A DNA stretch of 59,029 nucleotides from assembly GCA_051744245.1 (NCBI GenBank), contig JBNJCV010000001.1:1-59029 (forward strand), in the 5' to 3' direction. Both the position numbers and the translations under genes were made by a program. This document shows positions 21,048 through 58,006 of the stretch, piece after piece; position 1 is the stretch's first letter, and the number at the start of each line of letters is the position of its first letter. This DNA is from Actinomycetota bacterium. Its GTDB lineage: Bacteria; Actinomycetota; Humimicrobiia; Humimicrobiales; Humimicrobiaceae. The notes under the pieces were generated by a model. That model was not told the origin of the DNA. It saw nothing but the letters and a program-made list of their open reading frames with translations, and did not search any database.

Positions 21048-21058
21048 TAGGGGCTGTG

Positions 21059-30523: not shown

Positions 30524-30525
30524 TT

Positions 30526-31284: not shown

Positions 31285-31408
31285 TTTAATTAATCAAAAT
31301 GACTGAACTTTTTTATAAAAGATGATAAAATGATTTAATTTGTAAGATAACTTACAACGCATTGTGTATTATGTAACTATTTAGTAACAATATAAAAGGG
31401 GGAGAAAA

Positions 31409-32344: not shown

Positions 32345-32360
32345 TTTTAAGTATAGAAGG

Positions 32361-36492: not shown

Positions 36493-36525
36493 TAAAATTT
36501 GCAAATACGAAATAAGGAGTGAGCA

Positions 36526-37875: not shown

Positions 37876-37952
37876 CTTCCATATATGATTGTAACAAGTT
37901 AGTAATTATCATATAATTTATTTTATTAATATTGTTAAGGAAAGGAGCAAAT

Positions 37953-39650
37953 TTGAAAAGCGACATTGAAATAGCACAAGCGGCAGAGATGAGGAATATA
38001 GGAGAAATTGCTGAATTGGTAGACCTGGATGAAAAATATCTGGAGCTATACGGGGATTATAAGGCGAAGGTTGACTTGTCAGTGTTAGATGCCTTAAAGG
38101 ATAGGCCAAATGGCAAGTATATCGATGTTACGGCAATAACCCCTACCCCCCTGGGGGAAGGGAAGACCGTAACCACCATAGGCCTTAGCATGGCATTGAA
38201 TAAGATTGGCAAGAAAACAGTAACCTGTATAAGGCAGCCATCGTTGGGGCCTGTCTTTGGTATTAAAGGCGGTGCAGCTGGAGGAGGAAATTCACAGGTG
38301 CTTCCCATGGAGGACTTTAACCTGCACCTTACCGGGGATATCCATGCAGTTGGGGTAGCTCATAATCTGCTGGCAGCATTCCTTGATACACACATTATGA
38401 AAGGGAATGAACTGGACATTGACCCCTTTAGCATTTCTCTTAACAGGGTAGTTGATGTTAGTGATAGGGCCCTGAGAAATATAATTGTAGGGCTGGGGGG
38501 AGAGCTTAATGGGATTCCCAGGGAAACAGGTTATGATATTACTGTGGCTTCTGAGGTTATGGCCATACTAGCCTTGACCACAGGGCTGAAAGATTTAAGG
38601 AAAAAGCTTTCCAGGATGACTATAGGTTCTACCAGTGACGGCAAGGCAGTTACAGCTGAAGATCTCAAATGTGCCGGTGCAATGACGGTGTTGCTTAAGG
38701 ATGCAATAAAGCCGACTTTGCTCCAAACAATTGAACATACTCCTTGTTTTGTTCATGCTGGACCGTTTGCAAATATTGCCCATGGCAATTCTTCAATATT
38801 GGCTGACCTTATCGCCACTAAACTCGGTGATTATGTGGTAACAGAGAGCGGCTTTGGGGCAGATATTGGTGCAGAGAAATTCTTTAACATTAAATGCAGA
38901 TATAGTGGCCTGAAGCCAGATGCTGTAGTTATAGTGGCAACAGTTAGAGCTCTAAAGATGCATGGAGGCGGATTTGAGTTTGTTCCTGGTCAAGGTGTTG
39001 ACGAGGAAAAGATGAATACCCCCAATGTAGAAGCAGTTCGGAAAGGCTGCGAAAATTTAGAGAAAATGATAGAAAATGTTAAGATGCATGGGATACAAGC
39101 AGTAGTGGCAATAAACCACTTTGCTGCTGATAGCCAGGAAGAAATAGATGCCATAAAAGAGAGGGCAATTGCAGCAGGTGCTGAGGATGCTGTTGTCAGC
39201 AAGGTATGGCTAAAAGGAGGAGAAGGCGGAAAAGAGCTGGCAGAGGCAGTTGCAAAAGCTGCTGAAAAACCAGGTGAATTTAAATTCCTTTATCCGCTTG
39301 ACTGGCCAATAAAGAAGAAAATTGAAACCATAGCAACAAAGATCTATGGCGCAGATGGGGTTAACTTTTTGCCCAAAGCTGAGAAAATGATTGATACATA
39401 TACAAGACAAGGATTTGATAAGCTCCCCATTTGCATGGCAAAAACCCACCTGTCACTTAGCCATGAACCAACATTAAAAGGAAGGCCAACTAATTTTACA
39501 GTTCCCATTAGGGATGTCAGGGCATCTGTAGGGGCTGGATTCTTATACCCATTATTGGGTGAGATGAGAACCATGCCTGGATTGCCAAAAGTTCCAGCCG
39601 GAACAAAAGTTGATATAGATGATGATGGGAACATAGTTGGATTGTTTTAA
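37953..39650 (+). CDS. fhs: Formate--tetrahydrofolate ligase
   Basis: LKSDIEIAQAA N-terminus and P-loop PTPLGEGKTVTTIGL. TTG at 37953 lies 5 nt after AAAGGAG; the ORF track starts at 37932. Confidence 0.95.
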   Translation: MKSDIEIAQAAEMRNIGEIAELVDLDEKYLELYGDYKAKVDLSVLDALKDRPNGKYIDVTAITPTPLGEGKTVTTIGLSMALNKIGKKTVTCIRQPSLGPVFGIKGGAAGGGNSQVLPMEDFNLHLTGDIHAVGVAHNLLAAFLDTHIMKGNELDIDPFSISLNRVVDVSDRALRNIIVGLGGELNGIPRETGYDITVASEVMAILALTTGLKDLRKKLSRMTIGSTSDGKAVTAEDLKCAGAMTVLLKDAIKPTLLQTIEHTPCFVHAGPFANIAHGNSSILADLIATKLGDYVVTESGFGADIGAEKFFNIKCRYSGLKPDAVVIVATVRALKMHGGGFEFVPGQGVDEEKMNTPNVEAVRKGCENLEKMIENVKMHGIQAVVAINHFAADSQEEIDAIKERAIAAGAEDAVVSKVWLKGGEGGKELAEAVAKAAEKPGEFKFLYPLDWPIKKKIETIATKIYGADGVNFLPKAEKMIDTYTRQGFDKLPICMAKTHLSLSHEPTLKGRPTNFTVPIRDVRASVGAGFLYPLLGEMRTMPGLPKVPAGTKVDIDDDGNIVGLF

Positions 39651-39679
39651 TATTTTTTTAATAACTTTTATTTTAAGAG

Positions 39680-40603
39680 GTGATTAAAATAGCACAGATA
39701 ATAAGCGGAAAAGAAATTTCTAAACAGATAAAAGATGAAGTTAAAGCGGAAATAAGTAAGATGGAAAAAGAAAAAGGAGCAAGGCCAGGGCTTGCAGTAA
39801 TTTTGGTTGGAGAAAACCCAGCATCGAAAGTATATGTGGCTAGTAAACAAAGAGGTTGTGAACAAGTAGGTATAAAATCAGAATCTATTAAAATGAATGA
39901 CACAGTCTCCACGGAAGATATACTTAAAGAAATTGATAAATTAAATTCAAGAAATGATATACATGGCATACTTGTGCAGCTTCCATTGCCTGAGCAGGTA
40001 GACAAAAATAGAGTGCTTGAAGCTGTTTCTCCCGAGAAAGATGTTGATGGATTCCATCCAATTAATATGGGAAGATTAGTAGCTCAGCAGGAATGCTTAA
40101 TTCCAGCCACTCCCTTAGGAGTTATTGAAATGTTGAAGAGATCCAATATCAGTTTAAAGGGTAAAAATGCAACCATGGTTGGCCATAGCGAAATAGTGGG
40201 AAAACCATGTAGCCTGCTTTTGTTAAATGAATGGGCTACTGTTACTATATGCCATATAGAAACTAAAGATCTAAAAATGCATACAGAAGACGCTGATATA
40301 CTAATAGTTGCAGCAGGAGTACCATACCTTATCAAGGAGGACATGGTAAAAGAAGGTGCCGTGGTTATTGATGTTGGTATTAATAGGATTACCAAGGACA
40401 AGGCTTCTAAAGAGCTTTTGGAATGGAGAAAAGATGATTTTGATAAAAAACAGGCAACCTTAATTGGTGATGTAGATTATCTCAGGGTTGAACCAAAGGT
40501 TAGCCATATTTCTCCTGTTCCGGGAGGCGTAGGCCCAATGACAATAGCTATGCTTCTTAAAAATACTTTAACAGCTGCTAAAAAAGCTGTTGGAATGAAA
40601 TAA
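39680..40603 (+). CDS. folD: Bifunctional methylene-THF dehydrogenase / methenyl-THF cyclohydrolase
   Basis: SKVYV..K, DVDGFHP and PVPGGVGPMT motifs, GTG start after AAGAGG. Carries an insertion of about 18-20 aa after GINR. Confidence 0.93.
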   Translation: MIKIAQIISGKEISKQIKDEVKAEISKMEKEKGARPGLAVILVGENPASKVYVASKQRGCEQVGIKSESIKMNDTVSTEDILKEIDKLNSRNDIHGILVQLPLPEQVDKNRVLEAVSPEKDVDGFHPINMGRLVAQQECLIPATPLGVIEMLKRSNISLKGKNATMVGHSEIVGKPCSLLLLNEWATVTICHIETKDLKMHTEDADILIVAAGVPYLIKEDMVKEGAVVIDVGINRITKDKASKELLEWRKDDFDKKQATLIGDVDYLRVEPKVSHISPVPGGVGPMTIAMLLKNTLTAAKKAVGMK

Positions 40604-40641: not shown

Positions 40642-40917
40642 ATGTATTATGCAAGGGTAATTGGAAAAATAGTTGCTACTGCAAAATATGAGGGGCTGGT
40701 AGGGAAAAAAATACAAGTCCTGCAGCCTGTAGATCTAGAAACCGGGAAAGATGAAGGAAGCTTTCTGGTAGCACTGGATTCTACTTCTTCAGGAATAGGG
40801 GATATCGTGGGTTATGAAGACGGTTCAGAAGCTACATGGGCATTTGAGGGGGAAAATATCCCCACGGATGCTACTATAGTAGCAATAATAGATAACGTAA
40901 ACATAGAAAAGGTCTGA
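40642..40917 (+). CDS. BMC vertex protein (BMC-P, EutN/CcmL family), divergent paralog 1
   Basis: 91 aa. MYYARVIGKIVATAKYEGLVGKKIQVLQPV matches the EutN/CcmL N-terminal pattern. Confidence 0.85.
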   Translation: MYYARVIGKIVATAKYEGLVGKKIQVLQPVDLETGKDEGSFLVALDSTSSGIGDIVGYEDGSEATWAFEGENIPTDATIVAIIDNVNIEKV

Positions 40918-40918
40918 A

Positions 40919-41191
40919 ATGGTTTTAAGTGAAGTTATTGGAAATGTTGTTTGCACCCAAAAAGACAAGAGCCTTAACGGTAAAAAGCTTTTAATTGTCA
41001 AAGCAATTGACCTGGATGGCAAAAGGCTTGACCCTTTTGTAGTTGCTGTTGATTTAGTTGGTGTAGGCATAGGAGAGAAAGTGTTAGTTGTAAATGGTAG
41101 TTCAGCCCGGCAGACTGACCTAACCAGGGAAAAGAGCATAGATTCTGTTATTGTAGCAAAAGTTGATAGCGTAAATTTAGGGAAAGAATAG
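40919..41191 (+). CDS. BMC vertex protein (BMC-P, EutN/CcmL family), paralog 2
   Basis: 90 aa: VIGNVVCTQKDKSLNGKKLLIV..VVAVDLVGVGIGEKVLVVNGSSAR. Confidence 0.9.
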   Translation: MVLSEVIGNVVCTQKDKSLNGKKLLIVKAIDLDGKRLDPFVVAVDLVGVGIGEKVLVVNGSSARQTDLTREKSIDSVIVAKVDSVNLGKE

Positions 41192-41192
41192 T

Positions 41193-41594
41193 TTACTTAT
41201 CTATTTCTTCAATTAGTTTTTTTACTTTTTTTTCTGTTTCTGTTCCCCCCAGTATTTTATCCGAGACCGATTTAATTATGCTTTTAGCCAGCTCTTTTTC
41301 TGATACTGCTGGGGAATATATATAAGTTTTAGAACTTTTGTCCTGGCTTAGCAGTCCCTTGTCAGCCAGGGTATTCATTGTTGACATTACTGTAGTATAT
41401 GGTATAAAGCCCTGTTTTTTTTCTGCTATTTCGCTTCTTAACATTAATTCGTGTACTTCTCTTACAGTAGTCTTTTTCTTTTCCCATACAACTTTCATAA
41501 TTGTTGCTTCCAGATTGCTTATACTGTTTAGCCCGTTTATTCCAATTTCTTCAGATTTCTTTTTTGGATTTTGCTTAGCCAATTTATCTACCAC
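41193..41594 (-). CDS. BlaI/MecI/CopY-family winged-helix repressor
   Basis: LEATIMKVVWEKKKTTVREVHELM..YTTVMSTMNTLADKGLL..YIYSPAVSEKE. No BlaR/MecR-type sensor gene is adjacent. Confidence 0.8.
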   Translation of the reverse strand: MVDKLAKQNPKKKSEEIGINGLNSISNLEATIMKVVWEKKKTTVREVHELMLRSEIAEKKQGFIPYTTVMSTMNTLADKGLLSQDKSSKTYIYSPAVSEKELAKSIIKSVSDKILGGTETEKKVKKLIEEIDK

Positions 41595-41907
41595 CTTATA
41601 TTTAAAATTTTTGAAAATACTATTACTTGATTAATTAAATGTATTTCTACCTTATACTATTTTTTTTTACAAAATAAATCAATAATAAAAAAATTATATC
41701 CTTGATATTAGCCGGAAATATTTTGCCTAACCTTAGCTGGATATTGCTAATAACAAGAGGGATAAAAAAGTTATTGGCAACCAGAGGTTTCTGAATTTTG
41801 TAAAGGCTGGCCAACCATTGCAGCCTCTTTTAAATTATTACCTTAAATTATGTCTAATTATAAATTATAATGTTGTAACAATCATTAAAGGATAAAGGTT
41901 GGCGAAA

Positions 41908-42978
41908 ATGGGAAGAATATTTGTGATAAACCCGGGATCTACCTCCACCAAGATAGGTATATTTGAAAACAGTAAAAAAATACTCAAACAGTCTGTAAGC
42001 CATGATAAGGACAGGATAGACAGCTGCAGAAAGATTATAGACCAGCTTGACTACAGGATGGGCTCCATTAACAGCTTTATTGGGGAAAATAGTATAGACA
42101 TGACCCAGATTGATTATTTTGTTGGCAGGGGAGGTTTTCTCAGGCCATTGCAGAGTGGATTGTATAGGATAAATGAAAAGATGGTTGAGGACCTGGCTGG
42201 GGAAAAGTACGGAAGGCATGCCTCAAACCTGGGGGCAGTAATAGCCTGCAACCTTGGCAAGAAGTACGGCAAGCCCTCCTTTATATTCGACCCCATATGT
42301 GTGGATGAGCTGGATCCGGTAGCCAGGATAAGCGGACACCCGCTTTTTGAGAGGAGAAGCATTTTCCATGCCTTAAACCAGAAAAAAGCTGCCAGGATAA
42401 TAGCGGAAAGGCTAAATTCAAGCTACCAGGATTTGACTCTGGTAGTAGCCCATCTGGGGGGCGGAATTACAGTGGGGCTCCACAAACATGGAAGGGTAGT
42501 AGATGTCAATAATGGTACAGAAGGGGAAGGCCCTTTCACCCCGGAAAGGTCTGGCGGAATGGAGCTGGGGAGTTTCCTAAAATATATATTTGATAATGAT
42601 CTGGACTTTGAACAAGCCTTCAGGATAGTAATGGGTGAAGGAGGCCTAGCTGCTTATTTTGGCACAGTTGACTTCAAAGAGCTGATGAAAAGGTATAAAG
42701 AAGGTGGAGATAAGAAGGTAAGAGTAGTTATAGAAGCTATGGCTTACCAGGTTAGCCAGGAAATAGCTGCCAGAAGCATTCTTGCCTGTGGAGACATTGA
42801 CGGGATAATATTTACCGGTGGCCTTTCCCATTCAGAGACTTTTGTTGATTTGATTAGGGAAAAAGTAAAACACCTGGCAAAAAACATATTTGTAATTCCA
42901 GGTGAAAATGAGCTAGAAGCGCTTGCTGAAGGGGTGGTTTTGCTTTTGGAAGGAAAAATTGAAGCCCTGGAATATTAG
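41908..42978 (+). CDS. buk: Butyrate-kinase-family acyl-phosphate kinase
   Basis: MGRIFVINPGSTSTKIGIFEN N-terminus and ASKHA fold, about 356 aa. ATG at 41908; the ORF track has TTG at 41899. Confidence 0.88.
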   Translation: MGRIFVINPGSTSTKIGIFENSKKILKQSVSHDKDRIDSCRKIIDQLDYRMGSINSFIGENSIDMTQIDYFVGRGGFLRPLQSGLYRINEKMVEDLAGEKYGRHASNLGAVIACNLGKKYGKPSFIFDPICVDELDPVARISGHPLFERRSIFHALNQKKAARIIAERLNSSYQDLTLVVAHLGGGITVGLHKHGRVVDVNNGTEGEGPFTPERSGGMELGSFLKYIFDNDLDFEQAFRIVMGEGGLAAYFGTVDFKELMKRYKEGGDKKVRVVIEAMAYQVSQEIAARSILACGDIDGIIFTGGLSHSETFVDLIREKVKHLAKNIFVIPGENELEALAEGVVLLLEGKIEALEY

Positions 42979-42979
42979 A

Positions 42980-43008
42980 TTGACAATAAACAAAATATCA
43001 CATAAACT
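42980..43008 (+). promoter_or_regulatory. Candidate sigma-70 promoter for the deoR-BMC transcription unit
   Basis: TTGACA (42980-42985), 17 nt, TAAACT (43003-43008), about 27 nt upstream of the deoR ATG. Confidence 0.4.
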
Positions 43009-43034
43009 AATAACAAATAACAATATTAAACATC

Positions 43035-43799
43035 ATGTTATCTGCAGAAAGAAAATTAGAGATAGCAAAAATTATAAATGAAAATGGAAAGATTAAGACC
43101 TCTGAGCTTTCCAAAAGGTTCAATGTTTCAGAAATGACTGTGCTAAGGGATCTTGCATCGCTCGAGGAAGAGGGCGTGCTTAAAAGGGTTTATGGAGGGG
43201 CGCTTGCTTTCAATGATTCTTCAAATGAAATTTCTTCGGTTTTCAGGGGGAAAATTAACCGTAAACAAAAGGATAGCATTGCCTCCAAAGCACTTTCCTT
43301 AATTACCGATGGTTCCAGCATTTATCTGGACAGTTCTACCACCTCTCTATCTTTGGCCAAATTAGCTGCGTCCAAAATAAACATTACCCTGGTTACAAAT
43401 GGCTTAGATATTATAAATGCGGCAAAAGGGAATGGGAAAATAAAGATAATATGTCCTGGCGGAGAACTTAATGATGTTAACATGAGTTTTTATGGCCCTT
43501 CTGCTGAGAAATTCATGGAAGATGTAAATGTAAATATTGCTTTTATTTCTGCAGCAGGGATATCATTGAAATCAGGAATAACAGAGCAGAATCCACAGAA
43601 CATTGCTATAAAAAAAATAATGGTTAAAAATTCTGATATTTCGGTGTTGCTGATTGATTCCAGCAAATTTGATAAAATTACTTTAAATAGGGTTTGCTTA
43701 TTGCAAGATATTGATACTATAATTACTGATAAGGAACCGGCCTCACAATATGTGGAGCTTTTTAGAAATAATGATATTAAATTACTTTACTGCTCATGA
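43035..43799 (+). CDS. DeoR-family transcriptional regulator (sugar-phosphate sensing type)
   Basis: N-terminal HTH (ELSKRFNVSEMTVLRDLASLEEEGVLKRVYGGA) plus a DeoR C-terminal sensor domain. Its stop overlaps the next BMC-P start (ATGA). Confidence 0.88.
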   Translation: MLSAERKLEIAKIINENGKIKTSELSKRFNVSEMTVLRDLASLEEEGVLKRVYGGALAFNDSSNEISSVFRGKINRKQKDSIASKALSLITDGSSIYLDSSTTSLSLAKLAASKINITLVTNGLDIINAAKGNGKIKIICPGGELNDVNMSFYGPSAEKFMEDVNVNIAFISAAGISLKSGITEQNPQNIAIKKIMVKNSDISVLLIDSSKFDKITLNRVCLLQDIDTIITDKEPASQYVELFRNNDIKLLYCS

Positions 43800-44089
43800 G
43801 ATTAGGAAAAGTTATCGGGAATGTAGTTTCAACTGTTAAACATGAAAAGCTAAAGGGGATAAAACTTTTAGCCATAAAACCGGTAGGCCCTGATGGCTAT
43901 ACCGGGGGCAGGAAAATAATAGTGGCAGACTATCTTAATTCTGCAGTGGGTAGCCTAGTTTACTGGATTGAAAATGGGACCACAATTTGTAAGGTTATGG
44001 GAAGGAAGAGCATTCCGCTGAGGGGCTCGGTTGTTGGGCTGGTTGACAAGGTTGATTTAGATTCAAGAAAAAAAGTAATAGACGGTTGA
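43796..44089 (+). CDS. BMC vertex protein (BMC-P, EutN/CcmL family), divergent paralog 3
   Basis: 97 aa: MRLGKVIGNVVSTVKHEKLKGIKLLAIKPV. Confidence 0.85.
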   Translation: MRLGKVIGNVVSTVKHEKLKGIKLLAIKPVGPDGYTGGRKIIVADYLNSAVGSLVYWIENGTTICKVMGRKSIPLRGSVVGLVDKVDLDSRKKVIDG

Positions 44090-44095
44090 TGGAAA

Positions 44096-44362
44096 ATGAA
44101 GCTGGTAAAAGTTATTGGAAGTGTGACTTCAACTATTAAGGATGAAAGCCTGAGGGGGTTTAAACTTCTTTTAGTGCAGAGGGTAGAAGTGGACCTTAAG
44201 GGCAAGCAGGATTATTATGTGGCAGTGGATACAGTTGGAATGGGTGAAGGTGAAGTTGGCCTTATAGTTACCGGCAGTACTGCAAAAAGAACTGAGCAAA
44301 CCAGAAAGAAAAATGTGGATGCGACTATAGTCGCAAAAGTTGATAGGATAGATTTGAGGTAA
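44096..44362 (+). CDS. BMC vertex protein (BMC-P, EutN/CcmL family), paralog 4
   Basis: 88 aa: MKLVKVIGSVTSTIKDESLRGFKLLLV..YVAVDTVGMGEGEVGLIVTGSTAKR. Confidence 0.9.
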   Translation: MKLVKVIGSVTSTIKDESLRGFKLLLVQRVEVDLKGKQDYYVAVDTVGMGEGEVGLIVTGSTAKRTEQTRKKNVDATIVAKVDRIDLR

Positions 44363-44363
44363 T

Positions 44364-45695
44364 ATGGCTAAAAAAGAAATTGATATAATAAGAGACGCAG
44401 GCATTGTGGGAGCTGGGGGAGCGGGATTTCCCACCCATGTCAAGCTGGATGCTCAGGTTGACAACTTAATTGTTAATGCGGCAGAGTGTGAGCCCTTGAT
44501 AAATGTGGACAAGCAGCTATTAGAAAGATATTTCAGTGATGTTTACCGGGGCTTAAAAGTAGCTGCTAGCTTGACTGGAGCTAAAAAGGTTACAATAGCA
44601 TTAAAGGGTAAATACAAAAAGGCGATACAGTCGGTTAAAGATTTAAAGAAAGAGGGTCTTGACTTTGAAATATTTGAACTGGACAATTTCTATCCGGCAG
44701 GAGACGAGCAAGTACTGGTAGATGAAATCGTGGGCAGGATAGTGCCCGAGGGTGGAATACCCTTGATGGTGGGATGTGTGGTAATAAATGTTGAAACCCT
44801 TCTAAATATAGCAAAGGCTATGGATGGTACAAGTGTTACCGGCAAATATTTAACTGTAGGTGGAGCGGTAGCAAAGCCTTCTACTTTTATGGTACCGGTG
44901 GGTACCCCGGTAAAGCAGCTTTTGGATTATGTTGGGGGGATTACCGAAAATGATTATGCTGTTTTTGACGGAGGGCCCATGATGGGCAAGCTAATTGATG
45001 AGGAAAGCTATGCAGTAAAGAAAGTAACCAAGTCAATACTTGTGCTTCCTGAAGGCAATATTGTTACTGTGCAGAGAAAGAGAGACAGCGGCGGGCAGAT
45101 AAAAAGGGCGCAGTCAATTTGCTTGAGCTGCAGGATGTGCACGGACCTCTGTCCCAGGTACTTGCTGGGACATGACCTTTTCCCTGATGAGATGATGAAA
45201 AAGCTGTATAAAGACAATATGGACGAAGAAGATATAAAAAATTTTGATTTTGCTTACCTGTGCTGTGATTGCGGTTTGTGCGAGCTTTACAGTTGTGTGG
45301 TTGACCTTTCACCAAGGGCATTGTTTAATTACCTTAAGGATGAATTAGCCAAGCGGGGTATAAAGAATCCACATAACAGAAAAGATGTGCAATCTAATGA
45401 ATTTAAGGAATTCAGGAAGGTGCCTGTGGACAGGTTGAAAAACAGACTGGAGATTGACAAATATGATGTGGAGACTCCTTTAACTGAGTTTGGGGAAGAA
45501 GTAAGCGAGGTTAAACTCTATCTCAGCCAGCATGTAGGAGCGCCTTCAAAACCAGTGGTAAATGCCGGGGATAAGCTAGAAGCTGGCAGTCTGGTGGCTG
45601 ACATACCGGAAGAAAGCTTGGGAGCAAAAATACATAGTTCTATTTCTGGAAAGGTTAAGGAAATAACTTCTGAATATATTTTGGTGGGTAAATGA
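44364..45695 (+). CDS. PduS/RnfC-like flavo-iron-sulfur oxidoreductase
   Basis: NuoF-like nucleotide/FMN loop GIVGAGGAGFPTHVKL. Two 4Fe-4S motifs (CLSCRMCTDLCP, CCDCGLCELYSC). A C-terminal barrel-sandwich segment resembles RnfC_N (LSQHVGAPSKPVVNAGDKL..IHSSISGKV). Confidence 0.85.
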   Translation: MAKKEIDIIRDAGIVGAGGAGFPTHVKLDAQVDNLIVNAAECEPLINVDKQLLERYFSDVYRGLKVAASLTGAKKVTIALKGKYKKAIQSVKDLKKEGLDFEIFELDNFYPAGDEQVLVDEIVGRIVPEGGIPLMVGCVVINVETLLNIAKAMDGTSVTGKYLTVGGAVAKPSTFMVPVGTPVKQLLDYVGGITENDYAVFDGGPMMGKLIDEESYAVKKVTKSILVLPEGNIVTVQRKRDSGGQIKRAQSICLSCRMCTDLCPRYLLGHDLFPDEMMKKLYKDNMDEEDIKNFDFAYLCCDCGLCELYSCVVDLSPRALFNYLKDELAKRGIKNPHNRKDVQSNEFKEFRKVPVDRLKNRLEIDKYDVETPLTEFGEEVSEVKLYLSQHVGAPSKPVVNAGDKLEAGSLVADIPEESLGAKIHSSISGKVKEITSEYILVGK

Positions 45696-46267
45696 TGGCA
45701 GATTATAGCAATATTTGCGTATTGGAATTTAAAAGCGTATCCAGGGGCATACAGGTGACAGATAGTGCGGTAAAGGCAGCAGAAGCCAACCTGGTAATTG
45801 CAACCTCCCTATGCCCGGGAAAATATTTAACAGTTTTGGAAGGAGAGATGGATGCACTGGAGACTGTAGCTCAGACGGCAAGAATTGAAGGAGGCATGCA
45901 TCTTTACAGTGAAATGGTTATAGGGGGAATAGATTTAAAAGTTATTGATGCCATTAGTGGGAAGGTAGCGGATTTGCCCCTGGGAGCAGTGGGGATAATT
46001 GAAAGCATGCAAATGGCACCCATTATAAATGCGGCTGATATTTGTGTAGATAGCGCTGATGTAGAGTTTTTGGATTTCAGGCTGGCCAGGGGATGTGGGG
46101 TCAATAGTTTCTTTTTAATTACCGGTACCCTGTCTGCGGTAAAGGAAGCAGCTGGCAAAGCTTCTAGTTTCTTAAGTGAGAGGGGCGCTTTAATTGGGGA
46201 GAGGATAATTGCAAATCCTGACAAGGAAGTTGCCAGGTGGCTTAAGTCTTCTTTATGCAGGTGTTAA
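45692..46267 (+). CDS. Tandem-domain BMC shell protein (BMC-T), PduT-like with pore Cys
   Basis: 191 aa with two BMC domains. The first has the PduT-type motif SLCPGKYL. ATGA overlap with the upstream PduS-like gene. Confidence 0.85.
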   Translation: MMADYSNICVLEFKSVSRGIQVTDSAVKAAEANLVIATSLCPGKYLTVLEGEMDALETVAQTARIEGGMHLYSEMVIGGIDLKVIDAISGKVADLPLGAVGIIESMQMAPIINAADICVDSADVEFLDFRLARGCGVNSFFLITGTLSAVKEAAGKASSFLSERGALIGERIIANPDKEVARWLKSSLCRC

Positions 46268-46286
46268 ATGAGGAAAGGGATAATTT

Positions 46287-47105
46287 ATGGCTAATAAAAG
46301 TGAGAGTGAATACAGAAAAGATATAATAGAAGTTTGCAAAAGGATTTACCAGAAAGGGTGGGTTGCCGCCAATGACGGAAATGTATCCGTAAAGCTGGGA
46401 GATAACCTTGTACTATGTACCCCTACAGGGATGAGCAAGGGTTACCTTACCACTGACCAGCTGGTAAAAGTGGATTTAAATGGGAACAAGATAGAAGGCG
46501 AGCTGGAGCCTTCTTCAGAGGTAAAGATGCATATAGATGTCTATAAAAACCGTAGTGACATAAATTCGGTAGTGCATGCTCATCCCCCTACGGCAACAGG
46601 GTTTGCGGTAGCCGGGGAGGCATTGGACCAATGTGTTATTCCTGAAGTAATAATTTCCCTTGGCTCAGTACCGCTGGCTAAATTCGGGACTCCTTCAACC
46701 CAGGAAATACCTGATAACATAAGGGGATATTTGCCAAAGCATAATGTGTTTTTACTGGAAAACCACGGTGCCCTGTCTATAGGCCCTGATGTTTATAAAG
46801 CTTATTACAGGATGGAAAGCCTGGAATTGTTTGCAAAGATATATCTTACCGCAAAGCAGATAGGCCAGGTAAATGTGTTAAGCGAGGAAAATGTTGAAAG
46901 AATGGTACAGCTAAGACAGGATTGGGGAATGGATGAGCATTATGCAGGATGCAGGATTAACGGAACGGTTGTAGATCAGGTAAATTATAATGACAAGGGT
47001 ACAGGTAGTGACAATGACGGTGATGAAATGATTACTATAAGTAAAAAGGAGCTTACTTCCCTTATTTCAAATATTGTTTCCAATATCGTAAATAAAGGTG
47101 GTTAA
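46287..47105 (+). CDS. Class II (Zn-dependent) aldolase/epimerase family protein, FucA-like, with C-terminal extension
   Basis: FucA-type residues: SSEVKMH (Glu), VVHAHPP (2 His) and LLENHGALSIG (His). A C-terminal tail of about 55 aa ends in the amphipathic helix KKELTSLISNIVSNIVNK. Confidence 0.85.
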   Translation: MANKSESEYRKDIIEVCKRIYQKGWVAANDGNVSVKLGDNLVLCTPTGMSKGYLTTDQLVKVDLNGNKIEGELEPSSEVKMHIDVYKNRSDINSVVHAHPPTATGFAVAGEALDQCVIPEVIISLGSVPLAKFGTPSTQEIPDNIRGYLPKHNVFLLENHGALSIGPDVYKAYYRMESLELFAKIYLTAKQIGQVNVLSEENVERMVQLRQDWGMDEHYAGCRINGTVVDQVNYNDKGTGSDNDGDEMITISKKELTSLISNIVSNIVNKGG

Positions 47106-47171
47106 CCCTATAAAAAAATAAAATTTCATTTATAATGATAAAATCGTAAACCAATAAAAAAGGAGAGAAAA

Positions 47172-47447
47172 ATGGCAGGAGAAGCAATCGGATTAATTGA
47201 AACAAGAGGACTTGTAGGATCAGTTGAAGCGGCAGACTCAATGGTAAAAGCTGCAAATGTTACCCTAATGGGGCAGGAAAGAATCGGCGGAGGTCTGGTA
47301 ACTGTGTTAGTTAAGGGCGATGTTGGCGCGGTTAAGGCAGCAGTTGATGCTGGCGCAGCCGCAGCTAAAAGAGTAGGGGAGCTGCTTTCAGTACATGTTA
47401 TCCCTAGGCCGCACCAGGATCTTGATTTGATTTTACCTAGTGAGTAA
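47172..47447 (+). CDS. BMC hexamer shell protein (BMC-H, PduA/EutM-like)
   Basis: 91 aa: [42 protein letters not shown]. Strong AAAGGAGAG RBS. Confidence 0.95.
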
Positions 47448-47480
47448 AAAAATTGTTAATTAAAAGAGAGGTATTTTAAA

Positions 47481-48467
47481 GTGGATACCGAAAAATTAAT
47501 CAGAGATGTAGTGGTTAGTGTAATGAAGCGGCTGGAAAATGAAGAAGTACCTCAAACCAGGGCTAAATCTAGCCAGATTTCAAATCAGGAAGACAAGGTG
47601 AAGGTTTCAGGCCGAAAGGTGGTTTGCGGAGTATCTGTAAGGCATGTCCACTTGTGCAGGGAGCATTTGGAGATACTTTTTGGCAAAGGCTATGAGCTGA
47701 GCGAGCTAAGGGAACTTTACAATCCCGGATTTGCAGCTAAAGAGACAGTAACGATAGTAGGTCCTAAATTAAATGCTATCCAGAATATCAGGGTATTGGG
47801 ACCCCTGAGAAGCAAATCACAGGTAGAATTGGCCAAAACTGATTGTGTTATCTTAGGAATTGATGCTCCAGTAAGGCCTTCCGGCAGTGTGGAAGGCAGT
47901 GCTTCGGCGGTAGTAGTTGGGCCTAAAGGTGTGGTTTACCTCAAAGAAGGAGTAATACGGGCAAACCGCCATATGCACATGTGTCCCGATGATGCGCAAT
48001 ATTTTGGCTTAAGCGATAATGATAAAGCGGATGTGAGGATCCCAGGCCCAAAGGGCCTTACCTTTAATAATGTCCAGGTTAGGGTATCAGCGGATTTTAA
48101 AACAGAGATGCATGTAGATACAGATGATGCCAATGCTGCAGATATTGTAAACGGCACCTTGGTGGACATAGTGGATGCCTCATGCATTGCACCGCTTGAA
48201 GCGCAGATGGCCGAGAAAAATGGTACCCCGCCAAGCATACCTGACGGAAGTTTTGCCGGGGAGATAACAGATACAAATGTTGCCCAAAGTATTAGAAGCA
48301 GCATGGCAGGAAAACAGGACGGCCAGCAGCCTTCCGCAAAAAAGATAGTTATTACAGTGGAAAATCTGGATGAATACAAGGATAGCGGGATAAAGCTATC
48401 GGATAATGTAATCCTTTCTCCGCTGGCTAGGGATGAAGCTAAGGAAAGAGGTATTAAGATTTATTGA
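47481..48467 (+). CDS. pduL: Phosphate acyltransferase PduL with N-terminal encapsulation-peptide-like helix and a C-terminal extension of about 110 aa
   Basis: Two PduL repeats with GVSVRHVHL and ANRHMHM. The N-terminus is EKLIRDVVVSVMKRL plus a linker. GTG start after AGAGAGG. Confidence 0.88.
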   Translation: MDTEKLIRDVVVSVMKRLENEEVPQTRAKSSQISNQEDKVKVSGRKVVCGVSVRHVHLCREHLEILFGKGYELSELRELYNPGFAAKETVTIVGPKLNAIQNIRVLGPLRSKSQVELAKTDCVILGIDAPVRPSGSVEGSASAVVVGPKGVVYLKEGVIRANRHMHMCPDDAQYFGLSDNDKADVRIPGPKGLTFNNVQVRVSADFKTEMHVDTDDANAADIVNGTLVDIVDASCIAPLEAQMAEKNGTPPSIPDGSFAGEITDTNVAQSIRSSMAGKQDGQQPSAKKIVITVENLDEYKDSGIKLSDNVILSPLARDEAKERGIKIY

Positions 48468-48497
48468 TAAAAAGTTTTAAAAAACAGGGGGTAAGAT

Positions 48498-49916
48498 GTG
48501 GCTATAGATGAAAAAACGGTTGAAAAAATAGTAAGGAGTGTAGTGGATAACCTGGCTGGCAGCCAAAATGCTAGCAGCTTAAAGGCTTCGTCTATTGCTA
48601 CTTCTAAAGATGGCTTATTTGACAATATAGAAGATGCAATTAAGGCAGCTAAAACAGCCCAGCAGAAGCTTTCTGCCATGGGAAAAGATATAAGGTATAA
48701 GATTGTTGACTCCATAAAGGAAGCCTGCAGGGAGCATGTTGAAAGGCTGGCCAGGATTACAGTAGATGAAACTGAGATGGGAAATTATGAAGACAAGGTT
48801 TTAAAGGTTCAAGTTTCCATTGACTATTCAGTGGGTCCTGAAGACCTGGAAATAGAAACATACAGCAGTGACAGCGGGACCCAGACTTTTGAAATGGCGC
48901 CCTGGGGGGTAATTGGGGCAATAACACCTATGACCAATCCGACGCCTATGATTATAAATAATTCAATAGTTATGATATCAGCAGGAAATTCTATTGTTTT
49001 TCTTCCCCATCCAAAGGCTAATAAGTGCACCCTGGAAGCCTTCAAGATTGTGCACCAGGCTATAGTGGATGCGGGAGGACCACCCAATCTTATAACCGCT
49101 ACCAGGGAAGCGAAAATAAAGAATGTTTCTAATATTTTTAAAAGCCCGGATGTGGACATGATATGCGCAACTGGGGGCCCTGCAATTGTGGAGCTTTCCA
49201 TGAAAAGCGGGAAAAAGGCGATTGGTGCAGGACCTGGCAATCCACCGGTGATCGTAGATGATACTGCTGATATTGCCAAAGCAGCAGAAGAGATAGCATT
49301 TGGAGCTGCATTTGACAATAATGTACTGTGCAATGATGAAAAAATAATAATCCTTATGCGCAGCATTGCCGATAAGTTTTTGTCTGAAATTGCCAGGCAC
49401 AATACAGTAGTCCTCAATGCTGACCAGGCTTCTAAGGTTACAGATTTAGTGGTAAAGGATAATGAGATAGTCAAAGAGCTGATGGGAAAAGACTGCACGG
49501 TTCTCCTTAAGAGGGCAGGAGCAGATGTTGGGGGGCAGCCTAAGCTGGCAGTGTTTGTGGCAGACTCTGAATCGCATCCGCTGGTTCAGCATGAACAGCT
49601 TCTGCCGGTGGTTCCTATACTGCTGGTGGACACTTTTGAGGAAGCAGTGGAAATTGCGGTAAGAGTTGAGCATGGCTTTAAGCATACTGCAATGATACAT
49701 TCAAACAACTTGGAGAGGATAACTAATTTCGGGCAGAGAATTGGTACCACGAATTATATAGTAAACGGCCATTCCCAGAGGAGTGCCGGTAAAGTTTCTG
49801 AAGGCGGAACAGCCTGGACTTTGGCTGGAGCTACAGGAGAAGGACATGCTTCACCAAGAACGTTTACCAGGCAGAGGAAGATCACTTTTTACGGTTCCAT
49901 GAATTTTGTGAAATAA
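48498..49916 (+). CDS. CoA-acylating aldehyde dehydrogenase (PduP/EutE family) with N-terminal encapsulation-peptide-like helix
   Basis: N-terminus EKTVEKIVRSVVDNL plus a Ser-rich linker. ALDH core with the catalytic Cys context AFDNNVLCNDEK. Confidence 0.9.
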   Translation: MAIDEKTVEKIVRSVVDNLAGSQNASSLKASSIATSKDGLFDNIEDAIKAAKTAQQKLSAMGKDIRYKIVDSIKEACREHVERLARITVDETEMGNYEDKVLKVQVSIDYSVGPEDLEIETYSSDSGTQTFEMAPWGVIGAITPMTNPTPMIINNSIVMISAGNSIVFLPHPKANKCTLEAFKIVHQAIVDAGGPPNLITATREAKIKNVSNIFKSPDVDMICATGGPAIVELSMKSGKKAIGAGPGNPPVIVDDTADIAKAAEEIAFGAAFDNNVLCNDEKIIILMRSIADKFLSEIARHNTVVLNADQASKVTDLVVKDNEIVKELMGKDCTVLLKRAGADVGGQPKLAVFVADSESHPLVQHEQLLPVVPILLVDTFEEAVEIAVRVEHGFKHTAMIHSNNLERITNFGQRIGTTNYIVNGHSQRSAGKVSEGGTAWTLAGATGEGHASPRTFTRQRKITFYGSMNFVK

Positions 49917-49945
49917 AAACCTGATTTCGAAAGGAGTTCTAACCG

Positions 49946-50329
49946 ATGAATGGCGACGCCATAGGATTAATAGAGACCAGAGGTTTGGTAGGCTCAACTG
50001 AGGCGGCAGACACCATGGTAAAGTCTGCCAATGTTAAGCTAATTGGCAAGGCTTATGTGGGCAGCGGATATGCAGCAGTTATGGTTTCCGGTGATGTTGG
50101 AGCTGTAAAAGCTGCAGTTGATTCAGGCTCTGCGGCAGCCAAGAGAGTAGGGGAAATTATAAGTGTGCATATAATACCCAGGCCTCATCCGGATATAGAA
50201 AAAATTATTAGCGGCAAGGCTGTAAGGTCAGGAAGGGGAACTTTCCCCAAGTCCAGAACCCCCAAGCATAGAGGTGGTTCTAAAGGCAGCAAGAAGGGCG
50301 GAGGCTCTAAGGGCAAAAAAAAGAAATAA
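49946..50329 (+). CDS. BMC-H shell protein with Lys/Gly-rich basic C-terminal tail
   Basis: The BMC domain ([27 protein letters not shown]..) is followed by [34 protein letters not shown]. Confidence 0.9.
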
Positions 50330-50343
50330 GGCGGAATTAGCTT

Positions 50344-50892
50344 ATGGAAAAATCTATAGGAATAGTAGAATTCCGTAGCATTGCAATCGGAATAAGCGCT
50401 ATAGACAAAATAGTTAAGGCATCAGATGTCAGGATAGTTGATGCCAAAACCATGTGCCCTGGAAAATACTATATTATTTTTTCGGGCAGCGTTAGTGCTG
50501 TTTCTAATTCCATGAATATTATTAGAGAAGAAGAAGAGACGTTTATCATAGATTCAGTTAATATATCCAATGTTTATCCTGAGATATATCCAGCTATGTT
50601 TCAGACAGCCAAGATAGGAGAATGGAAAGCAATAGGGGTAATAGAAACCATAACCTCGCCATCTATATTTGCAGCAGCAGATGCTGCAGTTAAGGCAACT
50701 TCTATAGATTTAGTGGAGATAAGGGTGGCCAGGGCCCTTGGCGGAAAAAACATGGTAATAATTAACGGGGATGTATCTTCTGTAAATGAAGCCATAAGGG
50801 CAGGTATAAGTTATCCGCAAAAAAAGGATTTTTTAGTAGACTACAGGGTAATAGCATCACCACATAAAGATTTATACAGGGCAATAATGTAG
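50344..50892 (+). CDS. Tandem-domain BMC shell protein (BMC-T), second PduT-like paralog
   Basis: 182 aa with two BMC domains. The first carries TMCPGKYY, the PduT-type pore Cys. Confidence 0.85.
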   Translation: MEKSIGIVEFRSIAIGISAIDKIVKASDVRIVDAKTMCPGKYYIIFSGSVSAVSNSMNIIREEEETFIIDSVNISNVYPEIYPAMFQTAKIGEWKAIGVIETITSPSIFAAADAAVKATSIDLVEIRVARALGGKNMVIINGDVSSVNEAIRAGISYPQKKDFLVDYRVIASPHKDLYRAIM

Positions 50893-50894
50893 TT

Positions 50895-52175
50895 ATGAAA
50901 GTTAATTTAGATTATGGAAGCAAAAAACTGGGAATTGATATTCCCGATAAAAATTTACTTTATATACTGGAAACTAAACCAGTAGAGCCTATTGCCAATC
51001 CCAAGCAAAAAATCATTGACTCCCTTTACCATCCAATAAATTCACCACCTTTAGGGGACCTGGTGGGAAACAGCCAGGATATCTGCATAGTTATTTCAGA
51101 TATAACCCGGGCAGCACCTACAAAACTTATTTTGCAGGCTTTGCTTTCTGAGCTGGCTACTTTTGGAATAGGCAGGGATAAGATTACCATACTTATAGCA
51201 ACCGGGCTGCACAGGCCTAATGTTGGAGAAGAGCTGGAGCAGCTGGTTGGAAAAGAAATCAAGGAAAATTACAGGATTGTCAACCATAATGCAAGGGATA
51301 GGAGTTCCTGCAAAAATATTGGTAAAACCAAGAGGGGCACTCCGGTAATTTTAGACAGAGTATACCTGGATGCAGATTTCAGGATACTTACCGGGCTGAT
51401 TGAGCCCCATTTTATGGCCGGATTTTCCGGCGGGAGAAAAGCCATATGCCCGGGCATAAGTTATATGGATATGTTCAAGCATTTCCATGGCCCGCCCATA
51501 CTGGAATCCCCTAATGCTACAACCGGGGTGCTGGAAGGAAATCCCTTCCATGAAGAAGCAACAGAGATTGCAAAGATGGCGGGTGTAGATTTTATAGTAA
51601 ATGCAACCATAAACAAGGAAAAACAAACTACTGGCATCTTTAGCGGGGACTTGGAAGAAGCTCACCGCAAGGGAGCAGAATTCTGCCTTAAATCAAGCCA
51701 GTGCAGCATAAGAGAAGAAGCAGACATAGTTATAACTACAGGCGGAGGGCTTCCCTTGGATGCTACCCTTTACCAGGCAGTTAAGGGCATGGTGGGCTGC
51801 TTGCCTGCAGTTAAAAAGGGCGGAATGATAGTAGTGGCCTCTGAATGCAAAGAAGAGATTGGAAGCAAGGAATTTACAGACCTTCTAACAGGGGAGGAAG
51901 ATTTAGATAAGTTCATGGATAGGATTTGCAATACAGATTATTTTGAGATTGACCAGTGGGAGCTTGAGGAGTTGGTTAAGGCAAGGAAAAAAGCTGACAT
52001 TTATTTTTACAGCGATTGTATCCTAAATTGTTCTTACAGCATTCCCCCCAATACATTAAAAACAATTAATTCCATTCAGGAAACAATTGGTGCAGGCTTA
52101 AAAAAATACGGTGAGAATGCTAAGATTACGGTGATTCCGGAAGGGCCTTATGTGATTCCTGTTTTGGAAGAATAA
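50895..52175 (+). CDS. larA: LarA-family nickel-pincer-dependent 2-hydroxyacid racemase/epimerase (lactate racemase-like)
   Basis: 426 aa. LarA landmarks are ATGLHRP (His), EPHFMAGFSGGRK (His plus the cofactor-tethering Lys) and an FKHFHG His. Confidence 0.85.
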   Translation: MKVNLDYGSKKLGIDIPDKNLLYILETKPVEPIANPKQKIIDSLYHPINSPPLGDLVGNSQDICIVISDITRAAPTKLILQALLSELATFGIGRDKITILIATGLHRPNVGEELEQLVGKEIKENYRIVNHNARDRSSCKNIGKTKRGTPVILDRVYLDADFRILTGLIEPHFMAGFSGGRKAICPGISYMDMFKHFHGPPILESPNATTGVLEGNPFHEEATEIAKMAGVDFIVNATINKEKQTTGIFSGDLEEAHRKGAEFCLKSSQCSIREEADIVITTGGGLPLDATLYQAVKGMVGCLPAVKKGGMIVVASECKEEIGSKEFTDLLTGEEDLDKFMDRICNTDYFEIDQWELEELVKARKKADIYFYSDCILNCSYSIPPNTLKTINSIQETIGAGLKKYGENAKITVIPEGPYVIPVLEE

Positions 52176-52225
52176 ATTATAACTTTTATAAATCAAAATT
52201 TAAGTTGGATACGGAGACTTTAAAC

Positions 52226-54814: not shown

Positions 54815-54829
54815 ATGGAGGTAAAAAAA

Positions 54830-55258
54830 ATGGAAATAGAAGGCTATAATTTTTTAGAAGGCTTGTATTATGACAAAAACCATTTCTGGGCTAAAGAAGA
54901 AGGTGGAAATGTTGTGGTAGGGGCCACTGATTTTTTCCAGAAGCTGGCTGGCGACATTGTTTTTATTGAGCTGCCCATGGAAGGTACAAAGGTGGAGCAG
55001 GGTAAAAGCTTTTCTTCACTGGAATCAGGTAAGTGGGTAGGAAAAGTCTTTGCCCCGGTTTCAGGGGAAATAGTGGAGGTAAACGAAGATTTAGAAGATG
55101 AGCCAGAACTTATAAATGAGTCCTGCTATGATGAGGGCTGGATAGTAAAAATAAAGCCTTCAGACCTTGATTCCGAGCTGGGAAACCTCATGGAGACAGG
55201 GCCGGAGCTGGAGGAATTTATAAAGAAAGAAGAAGCAGAACATGGGCAAAAAGATTAA
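54830..55258 (+). CDS. gcvH: Glycine-cleavage H-type lipoyl carrier protein
   Basis: GcvH fold with the lipoyl-Lys context SLESGKWVGKVFAPVSGEIVEVN and DEGWIVKIK. ATG at 54830 lies 8 nt after GGAGG. An in-frame ATG at 54815 abuts the upstream stop. Confidence 0.88.
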   Translation: MEIEGYNFLEGLYYDKNHFWAKEEGGNVVVGATDFFQKLAGDIVFIELPMEGTKVEQGKSFSSLESGKWVGKVFAPVSGEIVEVNEDLEDEPELINESCYDEGWIVKIKPSDLDSELGNLMETGPELEEFIKKEEAEHGQKD

Positions 55259-57083: not shown

Positions 57084-57088
57084 TCCTA

Positions 57089-57919: not shown

Positions 57920-57936
57920 TTTTTTGCTTAGTTTTT

Positions 57937-57996
57937 TGGTAAATTATTAACCAGTAATGTTATAATATTTACATATTATTATCACTATAGTTATTA
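57937..57996 (+). promoter_or_regulatory. Promoter-like hexamers plus an imperfect 18-bp palindrome upstream of acsE
   Basis: TTGGTA (57937-57942), 18 nt, TATAAT (57961-57966). TTATCACTATAGTTATTA (57979-57996) follows, with 7 of 9 pairs complementary and core ACTATAGT, abutting the RBS. Confidence 0.35.
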
Positions 57997-58006
57997 GGGG
58001 GAAAAC

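Follow-up and report, generated by a model that had tools for sequence, protein, structure and literature searches.

The stretch of DNA analysed here (hereafter the window) comprises 59,029 nucleotides (nt) of contig JBNJCV010000001.1, assembly GCA_051744245.1. It belongs to an Actinomycetota metagenome-assembled genome (MAG) that carries the NCBI name 'Actinomycetota bacterium'. The interval 40642-50892 is a genuine bacterial microcompartment (BMC) locus, as all genes named there in an earlier note on this DNA pass the curated thresholds of Pfam or NCBIfam profiles. Eight shell genes above the Pfam gathering scores cluster with the genes of the phosphotransacylase PduL and of a CoA-acylating aldehyde dehydrogenase (AldDH) of the EutE/PduP type, which identifies a metabolosome. 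The locus is read here, with a probability of roughly 0.6, as an aldolase-signature metabolosome of the MIC4 kind with an 'incomplete core', in which a deoxy-sugar phosphate would be converted via lactaldehyde and lactate to pyruvate.

Gene content and shell

The Pfam scan of the window covered about 55 open reading frames (ORFs), namely all substantial non-overlapped ORFs with 110 residues or more. The BMC genes and the genes that follow them are:

40642..40917, plus strand: BMC-P paralogue 1, shell pentamer (PF03319, 82 bits)
40919..41191, plus strand: BMC-P paralogue 2 (PF03319, 88 bits)
41193..41594, minus strand: BlaI/Penicillinase_R-type repressor (PF03965, 73 bits)
41899..42978, plus strand: butyrate-kinase-type acyl-phosphate kinase, the ATG cited earlier being at 41908 (TIGR02707, 424 bits, cut-off 289)
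43035..43799, plus strand: DeoR-family regulator (PF00455 and PF08220)
43796..44089, plus strand: BMC-P paralogue 3 (PF03319, 73 bits)
44096..44362, plus strand: BMC-P paralogue 4 (PF03319, 87.5 bits)
44364..45695, plus strand: PduS-type flavoprotein/Fe-S protein (Pfam Complex1_51K, SLBB, Fer4_17 and C-terminal RnfC_N)
45692..46267, plus strand: BMC-T of the PduT type, pore cysteine C41 in LCPGK (two PF00936 domains)
46287..47105, plus strand: class II (FucA-lineage) aldolase, signature enzyme (PF00596, 161 bits)
47172..47447, plus strand: BMC-H, major hexamer (PF00936, 103 bits)
47481..48467, plus strand: PduL phosphotransacylase (PF06130, 230 bits, residues 49-221)
48498..49916, plus strand: CoA-acylating AldDH, EutE/PduP type (NCBIfam PRK15398, 525 bits, cut-off 403)
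49946..50329, plus strand: BMC-H with a Lys/Gly-rich basic C-terminal tail (PF00936, 88 bits)
50344..50892, plus strand: second PduT-type BMC-T, C38 in MCPGK (two PF00936 domains, 131 bits)
50895..52175, plus strand: LarA-family 2-hydroxyacid (lactate) racemase (Lar_N and LarA_C)
52205..53602, plus strand: FAD-dependent LctD/GlcD-type 2-hydroxyacid dehydrogenase (FAD_binding_4 and FAD-oxidase_C)
53630..54814, plus strand: HdrD/GlpC-like Fe-S protein with two CxxCxxCxxxC motifs and two CCG domains (CCG, Fer4_8 and related matches)
54815..55258, plus strand: GcvH-type lipoyl carrier, K73 in ESGK (PF01597, 144 bits)

The profile scores thus bear out several proposals of the earlier note: the metabolosome core of AldDH, PduL and acyl-phosphate kinase, the butyrate-kinase-like character of that kinase, and the DeoR-family assignment of the regulator at 43035. 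The PduS gene (44364-45695), the minus-strand BlaI gene, the lactate module and the Wood-Ljungdahl context had been overlooked. The unit does not end at 50892, as had been assumed, since LarA begins 2 nt after the last BMC-T.

The shell set comprises four BMC-P (PF03319, 73-88 bits against a cut-off of 25), two BMC-H with a single PF00936 domain and two BMC-T with tandem PF00936 domains. The count given earlier is correct, with all shell ORFs passing the BMC hidden Markov models (HMMs) PF03319 and PF00936. Its description as an unusually rich complement does not hold, as in the published catalogue (Sutter 2021) MIC4, SPU and further types have BMC-P triplets, to which an extra copy is added in some cases. 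The four BMC-P share 31-50% pairwise identity, and for each of them a related genome encodes an orthologue of 67-77% identity; from these sequences they appear to be old paralogues. Recent duplication of BMC-P pairs is ruled out by the same values. The BMC-H at 47172 is 85-92% identical in relatives. The C-terminus of the BMC-H at 49946 (window 50220-50329) forms a tail of about 35 residues, rich in Lys and Gly and strongly basic, that is variable but present in relatives. The PduT-type CPGK pore cysteine is kept in both BMC-T across the clade, and one BMC-T directly follows PduS.

Aldolase, cargo and lactate module

An alignment of the aldolase clade (25 sequences) shows that the catalytic domain is followed by a low-complexity linker, which varies greatly in length, and by a conserved amphipathic C-terminal helix (ITxSKxELxxLVxxIVxNILNK, approximately residues 247-270). 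This is the anatomy of an encapsulation peptide (EP), and a C-terminal EP is accordingly predicted for the aldolase from its sequence. The AlphaFold model derived from the 25-sequence alignment is poor, with a mean predicted local distance difference test (pLDDT) score of 40; helix 253-270 is its only confident region, and the model was used solely to note this predicted terminal helix. The earlier note had credited the enzyme with all zinc and catalytic landmarks. The claim stands for the zinc ligands H97, H99 and H160 and for the catalytic E78, which do not vary among the 25 clade members and are aligned to H92, H94, H155 and E73 of FucA. It fails for FucA Tyr113. At this site the clade has invariant C116, P119 and E120, the BMC members reading C-V-I/L-P-E and the clostridial fuc-operon members Y-x-M-I-E.

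A scan of species-representative genomes returned more than 551 aldolase relatives, of which the 80 best were examined along with six loci found earlier, 86 loci in total. The window aldolase is 50-53% identical to aldolases of fucI-fucK-fucU operons versus about 30% to E. coli FucA. In a neighbour-joining tree that included epimerase and decarboxylase references and left out a dehydratase (MtnB) reference, its clade stands beside the BMC aldolases of a Moorella mulderi locus (L013) and of a Chitinispirillaceae MAG locus (L060), next to the clostridial fuc-operon clade. E. coli FucA, YgbL/OtnC, RhaD and AraD all lie far outside. A PDB search with the aldolase matched FucA structures, with MtnB-type structures as distant partial matches only. 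The earlier note had considered that the aldolase might belong with non-aldolase members of the family; no grouping with epimerase, decarboxylase or RhaD references is seen, and its companions are aldolases from fucI-fucK-fucU operons. The aldolase therefore appears, as far as its sequence tells, to belong to the aldehyde-forming fuculose-phosphate aldolase lineage and not to the epimerase or decarboxylase branches in the tree.

Genes for deoxy-sugar breakdown accompany many of these relatives. Of the 86 loci, 31 encode FucI, 28 encode an FGGY kinase and 17 encode FucU; AraC regulators and FucO-like Fe-dependent alcohol dehydrogenases also occur. Shell genes are missing from 47 loci, which come from Clostridia, Ruminococcus, Lachnospiraceae and Blautia and encode 50-53% identical aldolases with no EP; nearly all of the FucI, FGGY and FucU neighbours belong, in the tree, to Clostridia loci that lack shell genes. 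Two BMC loci also carry such genes. The Moorella mulderi locus encodes a sugar ABC transporter, FucI (67% identical to E. coli FucI) and two FGGY kinases together with an aldolase with an EP, BMC-H, AldDH, PduS, BMC-T, PduL and AckA. The Chitinispirillaceae locus combines DeoR, LarA, GlcD and the BMC core with FucI (63%) and FucK (47%). In the Moorella locus, two genes of the URO-D family (methyltransferase-like; L013 5370-6494 and 8771-9913) flank FucI, which hints at methylated deoxy-sugar processing.

The AldDH (MAIDEKTVEKIVRSVVDNL...) and PduL (MDTEKLIRDVVVSVMKRL...) both start with an amphipathic segment followed by a linker. These segments are the top hydrophobic-moment windows of each protein (residues 6-19 in the AldDH) and are predicted to be N-terminal EPs. 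Sequence inspection found no such terminal extension on the kinase, LarA or the GlcD-like protein. PduL also has a C-terminal extension of about 100 residues (residues ~225-328; window 48150-48467) that is conserved in the Actinomycetota clade and ends in VITxxxLxxYxxSGIxLxxxxILSPLARDEAxxRGIKI. The extension has no Pfam match and is missing from the PduL proteins of Moorella, L012 and Chitinispirillaceae.

The PduS gene is conserved beside a BMC-T in all related loci, and here it overlaps the BMC-T at 45692. By analogy, PduS would presumably oxidize NADH and export electrons from the lumen; a passage of PMC11585597 cites a redox role of PduS homologues as a proposal in the literature. The Pfam/NCBIfam scan found no alcohol dehydrogenase in the locus. 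A butyrate-kinase gene at this position occurs only in the window and in two related loci (L002 and L003), the other related BMC loci having AckA. The DeoR regulator meets no NCBIfam equivalog cut-off (AgaR 174/260, FucR 113/259).

Downstream of the last BMC-T, the best solved relative of the racemase is 9EID, a 'broad-substrate spectrum lactate racemase A' (E 7e-112). The motifs GLHR, EPH, GGRK and FHGP are present and presumably correspond to LarA H108, H174, K184 and H200. The best solved relative of the GlcD-like protein is Acetobacterium woodii LctD (7QH2_C, 345 bits). From these similarities, the dehydrogenase is presumed to convert D-lactate to pyruvate, with the HdrD/GlpC-like CCG protein as its presumed electron-transfer partner. 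Judged from gene spacing, the LarA/GlcD module appears to be translationally coupled to the BMC locus. In the literature searched, no paper describing a lactate racemase within a BMC locus was found; one unrelated paper names both terms.

Since LarA racemizes a chiral acid, lactate is favoured over achiral glycolate or acetate as the product. Lactaldehyde would likewise be favoured over glycolaldehyde as the intermediate, because the LarA homologue and the LctD-like dehydrogenase are seemingly coupled to the BMC locus and gained or lost with it. It is unlikely, then, that the same organelle instead cleaves a pentulose-1-phosphate to yield glycolate or acetate, with GlcD/CCG as a glycolate dehydrogenase. 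The candidate substrates would be D-ribulose-1-P or L-xylulose-1-P, which give glycolaldehyde, and 5-deoxyribulose-1-P or methylthioribulose-1-P, which give acetaldehyde or a derivative. In keeping with such a substrate, the top PDB matches of the aldolase include 6BTD, which we take to be the structure of a 5-deoxyribulose-type aldolase. The GlcD-like protein scores 320 bits versus glycolate oxidase, next to 345 for LctD, and is nearest to TIGR00387 glcD, where it remains below the cut-off; the neighbourhoods of the Actinomycetota loci contain no fuc or rha genes, and class II aldolases show promiscuity in the aldehyde that they accept (Axen 2014). A racemase would, however, be pointless for achiral glycolate or acetate, and LarA, which disappears along with the BMC, is conserved and apparently translationally coupled in all Actinomycetota loci. 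Moreover, the nearest non-BMC relatives reside in fucI-fucK-fucU operons, and two related BMC loci carry FucI and FucK.

Wood-Ljungdahl setting and proposed pathway

The BMC genes and the lactate module lie within a cluster of Wood-Ljungdahl genes:

28571..40603, plus strand: AcsV/RACo, CooC, AcsD, carbon monoxide dehydrogenase (AcsA), acetyl-CoA synthase (AcsB), AcsC, Fhs and FolD (Pfam)
55242..58804, plus strand: second RACo-type corrinoid activase, SBP_bac_3 protein and AcsE-like pterin-binding methyltransferase (profile matches)

The upstream array is co-directional, with intergenic gaps of at most 124 nt, and runs into the first two BMC-P genes, 38 nt separating FolD from the first of them. 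The sole large gap, 707 nt, is occupied by the opposite-strand BlaI gene, which splits the BMC unit. Further downstream, the DeoR stop overlaps the BMC-P start at 43796 by 4 nt, the CCG and GcvH genes are separated by 0 nt, and GcvH overlaps the second RACo gene by 17 nt. A scan for consensus promoters and terminators gave counts at chance (54 versus 46±7 and 19 versus 19±4, respectively), and transcription units were therefore inferred from spacing only. Rfam gave no match in the window.

Among Actinomycetota MAGs and unbinned contigs from metagenomes, loci whose aldolases share 57-80% identity with that of the window have a conserved arrangement, AcsC-Fhs-FolD-[P,P]-(BlaI±BlaR)-DeoR-[P,P,PduS,T,aldolase,H,PduL,AldDH,H,T]-LarA-GlcD-CCG-GcvH-RACo, where P, T and H denote the shell gene classes. 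Three relatives (L091, L092 and L094) have an orthologous Wood-Ljungdahl cluster (FolD 77-81%, AcsB ~80% and AcsE ~79% identical) in the order Fhs-FolD-(radical SAM)-(BlaR, BlaI)-RACo-SBP-AcsE. These three clusters contain no shell genes, DeoR, LarA, GlcD, CCG or GcvH, and the orthologues of the downstream RACo, SBP and AcsE genes directly follow BlaI. As three close relatives are devoid of both the BMC and the lactate genes, the BMC block is an accessory, and the lactate module and GcvH were inherited with it. An ancestral membership of LarA-GlcD-CCG-GcvH in the Wood-Ljungdahl cluster is ruled out, because the three orthologous clusters lack these genes along with the BMC.

BlaI, together with BlaR, is also present in the three BMC-less relatives, and the gene distribution suggests that it is a resident of the Wood-Ljungdahl cluster rather than of the BMC module. 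The BMC block is split around the BlaI/BlaR gene pair. Every relative has BlaI at a mid-cluster position, in most cases accompanied by a BlaR1-like M56 peptidase (L005 4605-6259; L091 12585-14279); the window has BlaI only. In L002 and L003, three extra genes that are absent from the window lie between BlaI and the kinase (L002 2756-5583). The L002 proteins have 204, 290 and 401 residues, the last being a second HdrD-like CCG protein (CCG/Fer4); for the other two, Pfam matches are none or sub-threshold.

It is quite possible, at somewhat less than even odds, that the Wood-Ljungdahl position is inherited synteny without functional coupling and that the block is a self-contained catabolic island integrated beside BlaI/BlaR. 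This explanation concerns the coupling only and is compatible with the pathway proposed below. The block is present or absent at the same site among close relatives, the equivalent BMC loci of Moorella, Chitinispirillaceae and Latescibacterota lie outside Wood-Ljungdahl clusters, one related locus (L008) has unrelated genes upstream, and promoter and terminator sites are no more frequent than chance, all of which are expected of such an island. In contrast, the gene order persists among deeply diverged loci whose aldolases are as little as 57% identical, and the borders are tight (38 nt from FolD to the first BMC-P; the 17-nt GcvH/RACo overlap). The BMC-P pair also stays with fhs-folD in L095 (10959-11530), although no acs genes or main BMC locus are found there within 10 kb. 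The orthologue of BMC-P 1 directly 3' of folD is 77% identical in L007 and 60% in L095, and that of BMC-P 2 after folD in L095 is 72% identical. The BMC-P genes at 40642-41191 seem to be linked with the C1-folate genes and not with the organelle locus.

In the proposed pathway, a 6-deoxy-ketohexose 1-phosphate, most likely L-fuculose-1-P and possibly L-rhamnulose-1-P, would enter the shell and be cleaved by the aldolase; dihydroxyacetone phosphate (DHAP) would exit, and L-lactaldehyde would be trapped within the shell. The AldDH would then convert lactaldehyde to lactyl-CoA and NADH, and PduL would convert lactyl-CoA to lactyl-phosphate with recycling of CoA. Presumably, the butyrate-kinase-type enzyme acts in the cytosol to form lactate and ATP from lactyl-phosphate and ADP. 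The scheme of the earlier note, in which DHAP and an aldehyde are produced and the aldehyde passes through acyl-CoA and acyl-phosphate to acid and ATP, is supported in its core by the HMM matches and the aldolase tree. Because the locus has no alcohol dehydrogenase, luminal NAD+ would be regenerated by PduS, with the electrons leaving by way of the Fe-S pore in the PduT-type trimer(s). LarA would turn L-lactate into D-lactate, which the LctD-like/HdrD-like enzyme would oxidize to pyruvate. As the BMC block is an optional insertion in a Wood-Ljungdahl cluster, CO2 reduction may be the electron sink; speculatively, it would replace the reduction of lactaldehyde to 1,2-propanediol of other fucose fermenters.

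Several observations weigh against this reading. The equivalent of E. coli FucA Tyr113 is not conserved in the aldolase and aligns to I118, the enzyme scores below all NCBIfam equivalog cut-offs (PRK06833 for FucA, 126/264; TIGR01086, 97/400; OtnC, 129/250), and the neighbour-joining tree carries no support values. LarA is also below its NCBIfam equivalog cut-off (413 versus 460 bits), and the GlcD-like protein matches glycolate oxidase nearly as strongly as LctD. The kinase is missing from several otherwise identical loci (L004-L007). The fucI, fucK, rhaA and rhaB genes are absent from the 59-kb window, as the earlier note had stated for the upstream sugar isomerase and kinase, and none occurs within 10 kb of any Actinomycetota locus examined. 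A source of fuculose-1-P in the organism is therefore hypothetical, and the substrate is inferred only. Finally, gene position is the sole link between the BMC and the Wood-Ljungdahl pathway, and in L008 AckA and unrelated genes are found upstream in place of the Wood-Ljungdahl genes.

A closer connection, in which a plug-in BMC/lactate module couples the metabolosome to acetogenesis, is considered doubtful. Electrons from the lumen would travel via PduS and the two Fe-S-pore PduT-type trimers, and those from lactate via the LctD-like/HdrD-like enzyme to the GcvH lipoyl disulfide, to be consumed by the flanking Wood-Ljungdahl enzymes. Co-transcription of the BMC-P pair with fhs-folD would in that case reflect co-regulation of organelle and pathway. 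GcvH is absent from the BMC-less clusters of L091, L092 and L094 and goes with the BMC/lactate block. It may be speculated that its lipoyl disulfide accepts electrons from the LctD-like/CCG dehydrogenase (window 53630-55258).

Operation of the organelle in reverse is highly improbable. In this scenario the AldDH would reduce acyl-CoA to an aldehyde and the aldolase would condense the aldehyde with DHAP, which would provide a redox or aldehyde sink for acetogenesis. The locus does adjoin the acetyl-CoA synthase genes and is devoid of an alcohol dehydrogenase, and a passage of PMC6281690 cites an analogous proposal for Atribacteria BMCs (Nobu 2016). However, PduL, the kinase and the lactate racemase and dehydrogenase are suited to oxidation with a gain of ATP, the catabolic FucI and FucK are encoded in relatives, and the Atribacteria organelle is a different system of the DERA/RpiB SPU type.

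Elsewhere in the window, genes for DhaL and DhaK, subunits of dihydroxyacetone kinase (21056-22703), are flanked by lepA on one side and, on the other, by the NuoE/NuoF-like genes that stand before the acs cluster. An ORF at 22834-23736 joins an N-terminal FUR-family domain to a NuoE-type thioredoxin-like [2Fe-2S] domain; genes for a NuoF-like protein (23748) and for a 2Fe-2S/4Fe-4S protein (25662) come next, and FUR also has a gene of its own at 27320. A 157-residue ORF at 9835-10308 aligns with just a middle part of the aldehyde dehydrogenase family profile (positions 255-339) and is probably a gene fragment or pseudogene.

Relation to known microcompartments

The earlier note had sought the kin of this locus among the PVM and SPU types; when matched by the text description in the catalogue, the closest type is MIC4. 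MIC4 comprises 15 loci, including some from Actinobacteria, with no function assigned (Sutter 2021, Supplementary Data 2). Its enzymes are an aldehyde dehydrogenase that bears an N-terminal EP, a phosphotransacylase, a pfam00596 aldolase and a pfam00871 kinase, and its shell has a BMC-P triplet (green, grey and orange clades) joined in some loci by a fourth copy; PduS is encoded next to a BMC-T of the PduT type that carries a pore cysteine (Sutter 2021). The window has the same four enzymes, including the predicted N-terminal EP of the aldehyde dehydrogenase, and no alcohol dehydrogenase. Its PduS adjoins a PduT-type BMC-T with the conserved LCPGK cysteine, and its four BMC-P are divergent (31-50% identical), compared with the triplet and optional extra copy of the catalogue. 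Five features of the window go beyond the catalogue text on MIC4: the kinase, which is of the butyrate-kinase subtype and missing in several sister loci; the second PduT-type BMC-T; the PduL C-terminal extension of about 100 residues; the added LarA/LctD-like/HdrD-like/GcvH module in the operon; and the insertion into a Wood-Ljungdahl cluster.

The PVM type of Planctomycetes and Verrucomicrobia, which serves fucose and rhamnose use (Erbilgin 2014), shares with the window a class II aldolase, DeoR, a kinase, several BMC-P paralogues and the chemistry from lactaldehyde through lactyl-CoA and lactyl-phosphate to lactate. However, the PVM main locus has two BMC-H and three BMC-P and neither BMC-T nor PduS, and the type is aerobic and restricted to two phyla. 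It also reduces half of the lactaldehyde to 1,2-propanediol by an enzyme of the lactate/malate-dehydrogenase type, whereas the window has no reductive branch and instead has the PduS/PduT pair and a lactate-oxidation module. Membership of the PVM type is ruled out by the two BMC-T, PduS, the absence of a PF02866/PF00056-type dehydrogenase and the Actinomycetota host.

The MUF3 and PVM-like BMCs of Clostridia resemble the window in the C-terminal EP of the aldolase, the N-terminal EPs of aldehyde dehydrogenase and phosphotransacylase, the kinase and the PduS/PduT pair, and aldolases of Clostridia BMC loci such as L013 are 49-51% identical to that of the window and form a sister clade. In contrast to the window, MUF3 has one BMC-P and three BMC-H. 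The Moorella locus differs in having FucI, FGGY kinases and a sugar ABC transporter, none of which is found in the window, and in having no LarA, GlcD or Wood-Ljungdahl context. The SPU type, including that of Atribacteria, has in common with the window a sugar-phosphate substrate, DeoR-type regulation in some members, BMC-P triplets, PduS, aldehyde dehydrogenase and phosphotransacylase. It is defined, however, by DERA (pfam01791), usually with RpiB (pfam02502). The SPU type is ruled out here, as neither DERA nor RpiB is among the scanned window ORFs.

The lactate module has a counterpart in A. woodii, another Wood-Ljungdahl organism, where an LctD-type FAD dehydrogenase is paired with a LarA-type racemase; presumably, LctBCD pair there with the lactate racemase LctF. 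The window module differs in having no EtfAB (LctBC) and in being followed by the HdrD/GlpC-like CCG protein and GcvH, and the electron acceptor is therefore probably different from that of the A. woodii system. In the literature searched, no paper linking Humimicrobiia, Aquicultoria or Geothermincolia with microcompartments was found. The novelty of the locus is thus that of a lineage-specific variant and its genomic placement, not that of an organelle type, and the principle by which a BMC works is unchanged by these findings.

If the proposed pathway is correct, it provides a concrete and testable route for the catalogued MIC4 and related aldolase-type microcompartments. Such a function would rest on the FucI and FucK genes of sister loci and on the joint inheritance of the shell genes and the lactate racemase/dehydrogenase module. 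An organelle with an 'incomplete core' could then dispense with an alcohol dehydrogenase by exporting electrons through PduS/PduT to a cellular sink. Should the genomic placement be functional, the use of polysaccharide-derived deoxy-sugars would be tied to acetogenesis in uncultured, sediment- and subsurface-associated Actinomycetota, and, if the module does plug into the Wood-Ljungdahl pathway, deep-branching Actinomycetota could ferment deoxy-sugars completely to acetate.

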